Notes: a model not told the origin generated them from the sequence alone. Positions 52,451 to 59,286 are shown, numbered from the stretch's first letter. The stretch: 64,000 bases of DNA from an uncultured Candidatus Saccharibacteria bacterium (GCA_964546795.1 CAZJKG010000003.1:22305-86304); one strand, 5' to 3'. Numbers and translations are program-made.

Positions 52451-52639
52451 TTAGAACCCATCTCAAAAATAACCGTGAGAAATAACCGGAAGCCCGCTTG
52501 GCCGCTGCGACGCGGATTTTCCGGCTCCGGCAGGTAGCGGCTCGAACTCGGCGTATCTCGATACGCCTCGTTCTCTGCCGACCCGCCTCGCTCGGAAAAT
52601 CCGCGTCTCGCCAGGCCATTATTTTTGAGATGGGTTCTA
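52451..52639. repeat. 189-bp nested palindromic element with 21-bp perfect terminal inverted repeats
   Basis: Outer IR TAGAACCCATCTCAAAAATAA / TTATTTTTGAGATGGGTTCTA. Inner IR GACGCGGATTTTCCG / CGGAAAATCCGCGTC. Central palindrome GGCGTATC-TC-GATACGCC. Lies directly upstream of the T4SS-like gene set. Confidence 0.6.
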
Positions 52640-52693
52640 GATCTTTTCAACTCCCTCCATTTTCCGCCGCGTGCGACTGCTATACTGAAGAGG

Positions 52694-53119
52694 ATGGAGT
52701 ACCAGGTACCGCAGTTCATCGAGGTTGAAGATAAGATAGTCGGACCTTTGACCTTGAGGCAGTTCATCTACGTCGCCGGCGCGGGCGGACTTTGCATTAT
52801 TTTCTTTGTGTATCTGCCAATACTTTTTGCATTTTTGCTCTCTATACCGGTGGTGGCGTTCGCTGCAGCCCTCACGTTCTATAAAATAAACGGTAAATCA
52901 TTCATCGAAATACTGGAAGCTGGCTTCAACTATTACACGGGGGCAAAATTCTTCCTCTGGAAGCATGGGGGGTCAGAAACGGAAAAGGAGCCGGGTCCCA
53001 CGAACGCGGCCGCGGCGGCCGCGGAAACCGCAGCTCTCAAAGCGCATGGCACTCCGAAACTTACGCGAGGAAAACTTTCGGAGCTTGCATGGTCGCTCGA
53101 TATCAAAACCCCTAAATAA
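52694..53119 (+). CDS. Small two-TM membrane protein, PrgI/VirB3-like
   Basis: MEYQVPQFIEVEDKIVGPLTLRQFIYVAGAGGLCIIFFVYLPILFAFLLSIPVVAFAAALTFYKING.... Position and topology resemble T4SS VirB3/PrgI. The start is uncertain (the ORF-track start lies inside the palindrome). Confidence 0.5.
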   Translation: MEYQVPQFIEVEDKIVGPLTLRQFIYVAGAGGLCIIFFVYLPILFAFLLSIPVVAFAAALTFYKINGKSFIEILEAGFNYYTGAKFFLWKHGGSETEKEPGPTNAAAAAAETAALKAHGTPKLTRGKLSELAWSLDIKTPK

Positions 53120-53120
53120 T

Positions 53121-53756
53121 ATGGCGGTAAAACCAGCAGGCGCAACTCAGCAGTTTGTCCCGGTCAAGGAGATTCGGAACGGCGTCATCGTCCTTAAGGA
53201 TGGTGGGTACCGTGGCGCACTCATCTGCTCTTCCGTGAACTTCGGGCTCAAGTCCGCCGATGAACAACACGCGATAACGCTCGGCTTCCAGAACTTCCTT
53301 AATACGCTCGATTTCTCCATTCAGATCGTCGTGAACTCGCGCAAGATGGACCTGCGTCCTTATCTCTCATTTCTGGAGGAAAAAGCTCCGGAACAGAAAA
53401 CCGAGCTCATGCGGATACAGCTGCATGAATATATTTCATTCGTCCGGTCTTTCACCGATCAGGCGAATATCATGACGAAATCATTCTATATCATCGTGCC
53501 GTATGCTCCGCGTGTTTCCGCCACCCGTGCGGTCAGTTTTCTGCGGCGCGACAGTGAGTCCGTGAAAAACGCTGCGGCCGCCACTTCTTTCGAGGAGGAT
53601 CGCGCGCAACTTGACCAGCGACTTTCGCTCGTCTCCGGCAGCTTAGCGGGTACCGGCGTGCGCGCGGCGGTACTCGGCACCGAAGAAGTTATTGAGCTCC
53701 TGTATCGCTCTTTCAACCCCGGCGAATTGGAAAACCCTATTCGTCTCGATACCTAA
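53121..53756 (+). CDS. VirB4/TraC-like conjugation ATPase, N-terminal domain (separate ORF)
   Basis: MAVKPAGATQQFVPVKEIRNGVIVLKDGGYRGALICSSVNFGLKSADEQHAI... matches the characteristic N-terminus of Gram-positive/CPR-type VirB4 homologues. Confidence 0.7.
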   Translation: MAVKPAGATQQFVPVKEIRNGVIVLKDGGYRGALICSSVNFGLKSADEQHAITLGFQNFLNTLDFSIQIVVNSRKMDLRPYLSFLEEKAPEQKTELMRIQLHEYISFVRSFTDQANIMTKSFYIIVPYAPRVSATRAVSFLRRDSESVKNAAAATSFEEDRAQLDQRLSLVSGSLAGTGVRAAVLGTEEVIELLYRSFNPGELENPIRLDT

Positions 53757-53758
53757 CT

Positions 53759-57282: not shown

Positions 57283-57284
57283 GT

Positions 57285-57347
57285 CCCGTTAGAGACAAAA
57301 CATTGAAAATGTTTACCGACTTATGGACAAGTCGGGTCTCTAATAGG
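57285..57347. repeat. Start-codon-abutting inverted-repeat element, copy 4 (short, 63 bp)
   Basis: Termini CCCGTTAGAGAC / GTCTCTAATAGG (10/12 complementary). The left end overlaps the upstream stop as ATGA. The right end abuts the ATG of the pilin-like gene. The interior holds two small hairpins. Confidence 0.5.
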
Positions 57348-58031
57348 ATGAAAAAAATACTTTTACTGCTATGCGTCCTGTCTCTCGGATTTGCCCCTCA
57401 TGTCTTTGCACAAGGTTTCGTTCCTCTGGCACCCATCCCCGGACTTACCGAGGGAGGAGCGGCCGACTCGAGCAATCTCGCACTCTTCTTCAATAATCTT
57501 TACAAATTCCTTATCGGTCTTGCAGCGGCGCTTGCGGTCATTGAAATTATCTGGGGTGGGTTGGAAATATCGACCAAGAAGGACTCGGTTAGCAAACAGA
57601 GTGACGGCAGGGAGCGCATCACGCAGGCGATCTTCGGTCTTATACTCGTCCTCTCGCCGGTGCTTGTTTTTTCCATCATTAATCCGAACATCCTGAATCT
57701 CTCACTCAATCTTAAGCCGCTTATTCTAACTGTACCTAAAAATGAGAGTACGGCGACGAAAATCATTGGAACTGGAACAATGAATGTAATTACGGGATCT
57801 GGCACTACAGAAATCGGTACCAAAGACGAAATATCTTCTTGTAGAAATGATGGTAATTGCGAGGATCAGAAAGCTTCGTGCAGAAAAAAGACCGGCCTTC
57901 CTCCTGAAGTTGGGTGTTTTACAGGCAGTTCCTTCAGACCATACGATGATTATAGTTCTGAACTTCAGGCATATTCGTGCCACACTGGAAAGCTAGTCGT
58001 TAAATGTGTGTTAACAGATTTTTCTATTTAA
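57348..58031 (+). CDS. Pilin-like protein (signal peptide plus two hydrophobic helices, VirB2/TrbC-like) with a C-terminal six-Cys domain
   Basis: MKKILLLLCVLSLGFAPHVFA; helices LIGLAAALAVIEIIWGGL and AIFGLILVLSPVLVFSII; a C-terminal cysteine-rich domain with six Cys. Confidence 0.5.
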   Translation: MKKILLLLCVLSLGFAPHVFAQGFVPLAPIPGLTEGGAADSSNLALFFNNLYKFLIGLAAALAVIEIIWGGLEISTKKDSVSKQSDGRERITQAIFGLILVLSPVLVFSIINPNILNLSLNLKPLILTVPKNESTATKIIGTGTMNVITGSGTTEIGTKDEISSCRNDGNCEDQKASCRKKTGLPPEVGCFTGSSFRPYDDYSSELQAYSCHTGKLVVKCVLTDFSI

Positions 58032-58035
58032 TATT

Positions 58036-59286
58036 ATGCGCCGCTACCTTGCCATCGCAATAATCGTCCTCGGAATCGGGGTAGCGATATATTTTTATTT
58101 TTTCAGAAACACAACGGGTATCACTGTGACGCCTTCCGGGGGCGCGAGCTTCCCGGTCGCAGGCGGGGTCACGGGAACTTTTGGCACAGATTTGGAACAG
58201 ACAGGAGCTATTTCCTCGGGTTCACCCGTAAAAATATCCTCCCGACTCGTCAAGATAAGTGCAGGACCGATCGCGCTCGGCGAGGCCGTTGTCGATAGCA
58301 AAGCTATAAATGCAAGTTCTTCGCCAGAAGTTGCTGTGAAGTACATTGAACGCCAGAGTGGTAATGTATTCTCCTATTTGGTACGCGCTGGTACACTCAC
58401 TCGAACGTCTAATAAGACCCTTCCGAGCATTCAGACGGCCTCATGGCTTCCCGATGGGTCGCTTGCTTTTGTGCGCTATCTTTCGGGCAATGACTTTTCT
58501 ACTATCAATACCTATGCACTTGCTACGAATGGTTCCTCAGGCGAAATGTCAATTGGACAATCTACGACGACAAAGCAAAACGCTGCTGTCGGTGGATTCT
58601 TCCTTCCGCAAAACCTCGTCGATATCGCTGTTTCCGGAGCAAACATCCTCTCGCTCGCTTCCGGTGTGAATGGTTCTATAGCTTCGCTCGCACGCACGGA
58701 TGGCACTCATGCGACAACAGCATTCACAATACCGTTGTCTTCACTGCGTGTTTCTTTCGCGGGGAAGAATCAATATCTCGCGTTTACGAAACCCTCGGCG
58801 ACCGTCCCCGGTAGCGCTTTCATCATCGACAGCACGGGACGCTTCTCCCGTATCGCCGGACCGAAGATCGGCCTTGTCGCTCTTGCAAGCCCTTCGGGGA
58901 AATGGGTACTTGTAAGTTCTATAGAGGACGATGCCATGCGTATGGAACTTGTGAATGCAGCGACGGGCGATATACTTGCGCTCCCTATCGCAACCATCGC
59001 GGACAAGTGCGTCTGGACGGCTGATGATTCAACTATCTACTGCGGAGTTCCCGTAAATCCATCAGTTGGTTTCAATTATCCCGATGATTGGTATCAGGGA
59101 GCTATTGCCTTCAATGATCGCATTTGGAAGGTGCAGGTCTCGGGCCGTTATGCGCAGCTCGTGCTTGATTTCCCAACGGAAACCAAAAATTCTCTTGATG
59201 CTGAAGCACTTGCGATTAATCCTGCGGGCACGGTGCTTGTTTTCGTCAATAAAAACGACGGTTCATTGTGGTCGTATCAACTTTAA
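58036..59286 (+). CDS. Membrane-anchored hypothetical protein, beta-rich
   Basis: N-terminal TM LAIAIIVLGIGVAIYFYFF; 416 aa; no family recognised. Confidence 0.55.
   Translation: MRRYLAIAIIVLGIGVAIYFYFFRNTTGITVTPSGGASFPVAGGVTGTFGTDLEQTGAISSGSPVKISSRLVKISAGPIALGEAVVDSKAINASSSPEVAVKYIERQSGNVFSYLVRAGTLTRTSNKTLPSIQTASWLPDGSLAFVRYLSGNDFSTINTYALATNGSSGEMSIGQSTTTKQNAAVGGFFLPQNLVDIAVSGANILSLASGVNGSIASLARTDGTHATTAFTIPLSSLRVSFAGKNQYLAFTKPSATVPGSAFIIDSTGRFSRIAGPKIGLVALASPSGKWVLVSSIEDDAMRMELVNAATGDILALPIATIADKCVWTADDSTIYCGVPVNPSVGFNYPDDWYQGAIAFNDRIWKVQVSGRYAQLVLDFPTETKNSLDAEALAINPAGTVLVFVNKNDGSLWSYQL

Follow-up and report, generated by a model that had tools for sequence, protein, structure and literature searches.

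A probable chromosomal type IV secretion locus of Patescibacteria with VirB4 encoded by two genes and a variable cysteine-rich pilin tail

Introduction

The Patescibacteria type IV secretion system (T4SS) was the first such system shown to be indispensable to the bacterium that encodes it (PMC12857230, PMC11665869). In Southlakia epibionticum, Wang et al. (2023) found that the T4SS and its pilins were essential for epibiotic growth, whereas comEC is dispensable (PMC10633639, PMC12857230); neither a coupling protein nor a relaxase was recognisable in this T4SS (SEML1_0006-0019; PMC10633639). In a survey of 3035 genomes, Quinonero-Coronel et al. (2025) placed VirB4 in a Patescibacteria clade nested within mating-pair formation type FATA (MPF-FATA). 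TrsD was the most abundant component beside virB4, PrgI and VirB2-like pilins were encoded nearby, relaxases were rare, and the Paceibacteria locus lay near dnaA, dnaN, rnpA, rpmH, and ksgA (PMC12102498). Here we analyzed a stretch of 64,000 nucleotides (nt), called the window throughout, from an uncultured Candidatus Saccharibacteria bacterium (GCA_964546795.1 CAZJKG010000003.1:22305-86304). Between positions 52694 and 59286 it holds a compact T4SS-like locus of seven genes in which VirB4 is encoded by two adjacent open reading frames (ORFs).

The split of VirB4 into two genes is an arrangement that is already known and published as a TrsD and VirB4 pair. The TrsC-TrsD-TrsE module of pGO1, a monoderm MPF-FATA module, has a separate gene for the VirB4 N-terminal domain, and CONJScan assignments of TrsD have been reported in Patescibacteria (PMC12102498). 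For the function of the Patescibacteria machine, reviews have proposed the delivery of effectors or the import of host material, and have excluded ComEC-dependent uptake as the essential role (PMC12857230, PMC11665869).

Results

A first-pass annotation of the window had described seven co-directional genes with tiny or overlapping junctions. All seven ORFs were confirmed on the + strand at the proposed coordinates except for the first start: the region had been taken to begin at 52451, where no ORF starts and the frame meets a stop after 28 codons. The prgI/virB3-like ORF opens at TTG 52625, and the closest relative (contig L081; TrsD-like protein 99.5%, VirB4 98.8%, and pilin core 98% identical) has a gene call of 141 amino acids (aa) equivalent to ATG 52694, which is the most likely start. 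The order from there is a prgI/virB3-like gene (52694-53119, 141 aa), a trsD-like gene for a soluble, stand-alone VirB4 N-terminal domain protein (53121-53756, 211 aa), a virB4/trsE-like ATPase gene (53759-55576, 605 aa), and genes for a small polytopic membrane protein (55554-56240, 228 aa), a secreted protein with three predicted immunoglobulin (Ig)-like domains (56269-57282, 337 aa), a VirB2-like pilin (conserved core 57348-57701, C-terminal extension 57702-58031), and a membrane-anchored protein modelled as a seven-bladed beta-propeller (58036-59286, 416 aa). The prgI stop at 53119 is followed by an ATG at 53121, the virB4 stop at 55576 overlaps the gene that starts at 55554, and the pilin stop at 58031 is followed by an ATG at 58036. 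Scanning the locus for promoters and terminators gave no enrichment compared with shuffled sequences and no notable internal terminator.

Profile searches recognized PrgI, the VirB4 ATPase, and the pilin, each above its cut-off. The PrgI-like protein matched Pfam PrgI at 2.1e-10 (41.4 bits, cut-off 27) and has two adjacent hydrophobic helices (hydrophobic residues 21-65). The 605-aa protein matched the NCBIfam model NF045971 conju_CD1110 at 377.3 bits (cut-off 325, 1.4e-112) over model positions 185-733, which makes the monoderm CD1110 type its nearest NCBIfam type. In Pfam it matched P-loop_TraG (2e-26, 93 bits, cut-off 25.8) together with AAA_10 and DUF87. Against Protein Data Bank (PDB) sequences it found the C-terminal domain of Thermoanaerobacter VirB4 (4AG5, 2.2e-43) and TrwK of R388 (7O41, 2.9e-6), with which it shares an ATPase domain carrying Walker A (AKSGSGKS, residues 259-266, 54533-54556) and Walker B (LLVIDE, residues 465-470, 55151-55168). 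Judged by these matches the 605-aa protein is VirB4, and the FtsK or HerA affiliation that had been raised as the alternative did not emerge.

For the genomic context we used 80 orthologous loci from species-level genomes, the best by VirB4 similarity (73-94% identity). All 80 came from metagenome-assembled genomes of Patescibacteria, with the close homologues from Paceibacteria and Kaiserbacteria. As determined by tblastn, the conserved order was prgI, trsD-like gene, virB4, membrane protein, Ig-like protein, pilin, propeller protein, yidC and rnpA on the opposite strand, dnaA, and dnaN. Individual genes were recovered in 55-80 of the 80 loci; rnpA (40) and the small membrane protein (27) fell below this range. 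The prgI gene was found immediately 5' of the trsD-like gene in 77 of 80, and the order prgI, trsD-like, virB4 held in 77-79. ORFs and translations in the window gave the flank as yidC (59431-60150, - strand), rnpA (60163-60498, - strand), rpmH (60505-60651, - strand, between rnpA and dnaA), dnaA (60706-62091, + strand), and dnaN (62203-63303, + strand). This flank (59431-63303) is a conserved chromosomal region near the replication origin, whose order recurs in the orthologous loci and, by gene calls with Pfam, in the relatives L082 and L083. Median identity was 83% for VirB4, the highest of the neighborhood, 77% for DnaA, 55% for DnaN, and 46% for YidC, a ranking biased by the selection of the loci through VirB4.

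Like the described Patescibacteria-clade T4SSs, the locus pairs VirB4 with a neighboring TrsD-like gene, includes PrgI/VirB3 and a VirB2-like pilin, has no relaxase or type IV coupling protein (T4CP) nearby, and lies beside dnaA, dnaN, rnpA, and rpmH; ksgA is in the window too. Unlike those systems, the operon has no recognisable VirB6 or VirB1. The earlier reading of a compact, relaxase-less T4SS-like locus from a reduced-genome lineage held: the homologues are from Patescibacteria, and the gene set and the dnaA-side position match PMC12102498. We conclude with high confidence that this is a vertically inherited chromosomal Patescibacteria T4SS, probably of the monoderm MPF-FATA-derived clade, in the Paceibacteria/Kaiserbacteria layout.

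Two other functions were weighed against this conclusion. The machine could be a ComB-like T4SS for DNA uptake that supplies ComEC and serves competence or the scavenging of nucleotides. The ComB system of Helicobacter pylori contains VirB2, VirB3, and VirB4 and is likewise not known to have a relaxase, VirD4, or VirB11 (PMC11665869); it is a diderm system with VirB6-10, unlike the window locus. Both comEC (47918-49417) and comM (18312-19970) are in the window, and import of nucleotides or DNA has been proposed as a possible role (PMC11665869). However, S. epibionticum lost its competence but stayed viable when comEC was deleted; its T4SS, in contrast, is essential (PMC12857230, PMC10633639). 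Since comEC is dispensable while the T4SS is essential, the essential role of the T4SS is not ComEC-dependent uptake. Moreover, competence in S. epibionticum depends on type IV pili, which are also encoded in the window. We regard a ComB-like function as rather unlikely.

The second possibility was that the locus is a conjugative element, namely an integrative and conjugative element or a plasmid remnant, for cell-to-cell DNA transfer. VirB4 and PrgI do belong to the monoderm conjugation lineage, and homologous gene trios exist on Firmicutes plasmids, some of which are typed conjugative. In Bacillus anthracis pXO1 and Geobacillus pGspE55-1, PrgI, a TrsD-like protein, and a DUF87 ATPase are encoded in the same order as in the window. 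The plasmid TrsD-like proteins are 24-30% identical to the window protein over 88-95% of its length, are longer (~305-318 aa), and come without a VirB2-like pilin; the window system, in contrast, is chromosomal, has a pilin, and has no relaxase within the 64-kb window. (The trios are the pXO1 record positions 87084-90451, L085, and L084 from pGspE55-1; the middle gene is 'hypothetical' in RefSeq.) Against a mobile element stands the constancy of the chromosomal site, by yidC, rnpA, and dnaA, across the species-level genomes, with yidC recovered beside the locus in 63 of 80 and dnaA in 58 of 80. Relaxase, VirD4/T4CP, and VirB11 were all missing when 30 ORFs of the window outside the locus, among them all those of at least 380 aa, were scanned with Pfam, as the first-pass annotation had anticipated. 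The only tyrosine recombinase, XerC/D-like, lies ~28 kb from the locus (23785-24711), G+C is uniform across the window, and relaxases were found in only 103 of 3035 Patescibacteria genomes (PMC12102498). Classical conjugation by the locus is unlikely, and we consider its origin as a conjugative element highly improbable.

Within the window locus, VirB4 is encoded in two pieces. Canonical VirB4 is a single chain that includes the N-terminal domain, whereas in the window that domain is a separate polypeptide and is not found on the 605-aa protein, which begins at model position 185. The first ORF ends with TAA (53754-53756), followed by 'CT' and by ATG 53759 in another frame, just as had been read from the sequence at first pass. 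The 211-aa protein covers positions 1-167 of the VirB4 CD1110 model (NCBIfam), so the two ORFs encode complementary parts of one VirB4 model (1-167 and 185-733). There were 5285 homologues of the 211-aa protein; the best 120 (82-100% identity) were all 211-221 aa long, all carried PF26593 'TraC-like', and came from many independent Paceibacteria and Kaiserbacteria assemblies. The 211-aa ORF itself had no match in our Pfam scan, PF26593 evidently being newer than the Pfam copy scanned, and a TrsD-like profile searched against PDB sequences gave nothing at E <= 1. The exact sequence of the window protein is not on record, and the near-identical protein P0001 belongs to L081.

Fused relatives of ~790-900 aa were found elsewhere in Patescibacteria. 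In two of them the TrsD-like domain lies at residues 5-213 (P0122, 797 aa, 39% identical) and 7-205 (P0132, 787 aa, 31% identical), and the ATPase part of the fused relatives starts from residue 226. The homology to TrsD is thus supported by PF26593 on the best 120 homologues, by 31-39% identity to the N-termini of the fused proteins, and by the TrsD assignments in PMC12102498. A further VirB4 relative, P0121 (1263 aa), is 61% identical to the query, lacks the TrsD-like N-terminal domain, and is ~650 aa longer. Its match falls in two stretches, the best being query residues 265-596, and the extra sequence, which looks intein-like, apparently sits beside the Walker A region.

The junction between the two genes was compared across the 80 orthologous loci. 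In all 78 that were readable, a stop in the upstream ORF was followed by virB4 at a separate, conserved ATG, with a conserved N-terminus (M-A/S-L-L-D-F). All three stop codons (TAA, TAG, and TGA) were used, the spacers measured 1, 2, 3, 4, 5, 6, 8, 9, 12, and up to 486 nt, with 1-6 nt in most loci, and all three frame relations occurred. One or two unrelated genes separated the trsD-like gene from virB4 in L054, L058, and L082, indicating that the junction tolerates insertions. The inserted segments (L054:4351-4752, L058:7619-7990, and L082:3581-4403) encode 23S_rRNA_IVP/bAvd-like four-helix proteins and DUF5680. The ratio of non-synonymous to synonymous substitution rates (dN/dS) was ~0.02-0.06 for both ORFs and ~0.05 for the 211-aa ORF, with synonymous sites near saturation, indicating strong purifying selection on both.

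The first-pass annotation had left four explanations of the split side by side: a two-subunit arrangement, a programmed frameshift, a pseudogene, or a sequencing error. It had also raised the question of whether VirB4 is fused elsewhere, to which the fused relatives, together with the 78 separate loci, provide the answer. The view that a single virB4 gene was broken by an indel from assembly or sequencing, or by a frameshift that recently made it a pseudogene, could draw on the existence of fused proteins and on the region 53696-53756, where both frames are open and one indel could join the ORFs. Nevertheless, it retains next to no probability, given the 120 best homologues that stand alone at 211-221 aa in many independent assemblies, the stop and conserved ATG in 78 of 78 loci, the genes inserted between the ORFs in three loci, and the low dN/dS of the small ORF; one assembly error cannot recur across ~80 independent assemblies. 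A programmed ribosomal frameshift or readthrough giving a full-length VirB4, suggested by two ORFs 2 nt apart in different frames, is just as negligible in view of the variation in spacer (1-486 nt), frame, and stop codon, of the conserved downstream ATG and N-terminus, and of the lack of a conserved slippery sequence across the orthologues. The conserved stop and ATG, the variable spacer and frame, the insertions, the dN/dS values, and the fused relatives together exclude sequencing error, pseudogenisation, and programmed frameshift. On this comparative sequence evidence, the split VirB4 is a genuine two-subunit arrangement, normal and conserved, and the same evidence settles that the two-gene form is ancestral and under selection.

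The VirB2/TrbC-like pilin candidate with a C-terminal six-cysteine domain, another element of the first-pass annotation, was borne out by its match to PF18895 T4SS_pilin (8.8e-8, 32.5 bits, cut-off 26.6); PF04956 TrbC scored 20.8 bits, below its cut-off of 27.9. Hydrophobic segments lie at residues 1-25 (signal), 46-65, and 89-118, the latter two being the two helices. As in Agrobacterium VirB2 and RP4 TrbC, the protein combines a signal peptide with a two-helix hydrophobic hairpin; the core extends from the signal peptide through the helices to INPNILNL and ends at nt 57701. The start at 57348 corresponds to the MKK codon at which the L081 pilin starts, and an alternative in-frame ATG lies at 57279. 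The alternative ATG is created by a 66-nt insertion relative to L081 (57283-57347) between the Ig-like stop and the MKK start, which also holds an inverted repeat (CCGACTT...AAGTCGG). Unlike VirB2 and TrbC, the window pilin continues past its core for another 109 aa, with disulfide-type cysteine patterns. RP4 TrbC has a short C-terminal peptide that is lost in maturation.

This tail (57702-58031) holds six cysteines within its last ~65 residues and follows a history different from that of the core. The window core was 97-98% identical to those of L081 and L083, whereas the tails of the three were 28-31% identical to each other; against L081 the tail reached only 31% identity, and nucleotide homology ended at ~57721. 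Conversely, L082 is more distant, with a core 88% identical, and yet its tail and the window tail share 73% identity. The contigs L081 and L083 come from one metagenome sample and have cores 98% identical with different tails, one with six cysteines and one with eight, the eight-cysteine tail resembling that of L020 (58% identity). In this sample with both tail alleles the assembly breaks at the tail; the tails of the relatives lie at L081:7080-7429, L083:3-500, and L082:7960-8697. Across the 41 orthologues the tails ranged from 11 to 295 aa and were ~15-20% identical even where the cores were 70-99% identical. The cysteines were concentrated in the tails (315 of 356, with 41 in the cores), and the tail count was even in 40 of 41. 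This pattern bears the signature of an extracellular, disulfide-bonded module that diversifies and is exchanged laterally. A structure-universe preprint described many freshwater-specific structural clusters with PF18895, which fit such a diversification of the tail. The literature we searched held no description of a hypervariable pilin tail exchanged between lineages.

The remaining three proteins have the general properties assigned to them at first pass: a polytopic membrane protein, a signal-peptide protein, and a membrane-anchored beta-rich protein. The 228-aa protein has three hydrophobic segments and a charged C-terminal tail. A protein with 2-4 transmembrane (TM) helices was found in the same place in 60 of the scanned orthologous loci, and these positional orthologues share an Asp in TM1 that hardly varies. 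None of 44 proteins (the window protein and its positional orthologues) matched TrbL/VirB6 in Pfam at E <= 0.01, and a profile search against PDB sequences gave nothing relevant. VirB6 was rejected as an identity for this protein, given the missing TrbL/VirB6 match and PDB relative and ~3 hydrophobic segments as opposed to five or more.

The Ig-like ORF opens at GTG 56227 (351 aa), and ATG 56269 gives 337 aa; in either form the protein has an N-terminal signal-peptide-like segment, and its C-terminus (NFFGL) is conserved. AlphaFold2 modelled it as all-beta, with three blocks forming tandem beta-sandwiches, with a predicted local distance difference test (pLDDT) score of 78.6. The best Foldseek matches in the PDB were phage Hoc Ig-like domains (9e-9), MAG, CD22, and the glycan-binding SGBP-B. 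The gene was found in 76 of 80 loci. The 416-aa protein has one N-terminal TM anchor, a disordered linker (residues 24-68), and, from ~residue 70, a seven-bladed beta-propeller in the AlphaFold2 model (pLDDT 79.4, predicted template modelling score 0.76), for which Foldseek returned WD40 and other generic propellers at E ~1e-9 to 1e-10. Cys325 and Cys336 were invariant in an alignment of 121 sequences. The gene was present in 62 of 80 loci, always directly before the convergent yidC. For both modelled proteins, Foldseek against the PDB found only generic folds and no T4SS component. The predicted folds are typical of surface binding proteins, and we infer the roles of these proteins in the machine from strict synteny. 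The text of PMC12102498 and PMC10633639 does not name Ig-like or beta-propeller partners (grey genes in Fig. 6).

Upstream of the locus, the intergenic region between a DUF3467 gene and prgI contains a near-perfect, non-coding hairpin of 188 nt (52452-52639, + strand) with nested perfect inverted arms of 21 nt and 15 nt and an RNA fold of -115.6 kcal/mol (z = -8.3). The hairpin is single-copy in the window and lies outside the conserved locus. It is absent from L081, which has a 62-nt spacer there, and its arms were not found in the 80 loci. Rfam on the whole window gave four tRNAs only and no match to the hairpin, which looks like an inserted palindromic or miniature inverted-repeat transposable element (MITE)-like element.

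As to the rest of the window, VirB4 is its only conjugation-type ATPase, in keeping with the first-pass annotation. The sole other secretion ATPase is the type IV pilus PilB (38240-39988), encoded next to pilC and pilins. The type IV pilus cluster (38240-43455) comprises pilB, pilC, two N-methyl pilins, and a 427-aa ORF without a Pfam match, and together with comEC it lies 4-14 kb upstream of the T4SS. Downstream of comEC, two overlapping ORFs of 85 aa and 94 aa in different frames (50549-51065), as read from their sequence, together resemble one metallo-beta-lactamase/ComEC C-terminal-type domain; either a frameshift or the splitting of a gene could account for them. A peptidase with M23 and LysM domains (16981-18174) is a possible VirB1 substitute. 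On the - strand (8349-13697), beside ksgA, three consecutive large ORFs (745, 727, and 338 aa) without a Pfam match may encode lineage-specific surface proteins. The remainder is core genome (EF-G, EF-Tu, UvrD, ComM, CCA enzyme, RNase Y, NusA, ClpP, PGK, TIM, and KsgA).

Discussion

The comparisons above suggest how a VirB4 made of two polypeptides could work in this machine. The stop-start spacing of 1-6 nt would couple translation of the two genes and yield roughly equimolar TrsD-like and ATPase subunits. With PrgI at the membrane, these would come together again as a complete VirB4, and the resulting motor would draw pilin out of the membrane and polymerise it into a pilus. This pilus, along with the Ig-like and propeller proteins, would then contact the surface of a host cell, and the substrate could be exported proteins or imported host material.

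Several points weigh against this view of the locus. For this lineage we infer the physical interaction of TrsD with VirB4, the formation of a pilus, and the substrate. The 211-aa protein matched the NCBIfam TrsD model NF041427 weakly, at 17.8 bits (cut-off 200, E = 0.0023). Neither VirB6 nor VirB8 nor VirB1 had a homologue in the operon that was recognisable by Pfam or by profile search against the PDB. Finally, the search for a relaxase covered the 64-kb window, and a coupling protein or relaxase may be encoded elsewhere in the genome.

The window locus has one pilin with a variable cysteine-rich tail, in contrast to Saccharimonadia and Microgenomatia, for which arrays of 2-11 divergent pilins have been reported. 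A tentative extension of the Patescibacteria T4SS reading, to which we give somewhat less than even odds, is that the tail is retained by the mature pilin and displayed on the pilus exterior, so that the swapped cassette would set host specificity as the counterpart of the Saccharimonadia arrays, and that the triple-Ig, propeller, and TM proteins would be unrecognised T4SS parts replacing VirB6, VirB8, and VirB1.

The type of system is already known (2023 and 2025; PMC10633639, PMC12102498), and the window adds no new kind to it. The only new element is apparently the hypervariable, exchangeable pilin tail together with the conserved accessory trio. As an example of the Paceibacteria layout the window is clean and well conserved, and it offers testable candidates for host recognition in the variable tail of the pilin and in the Ig-like and propeller proteins. 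Should that tail determine host range, tail types in metagenomes could be used to match uncultured Paceibacteria with their hosts.

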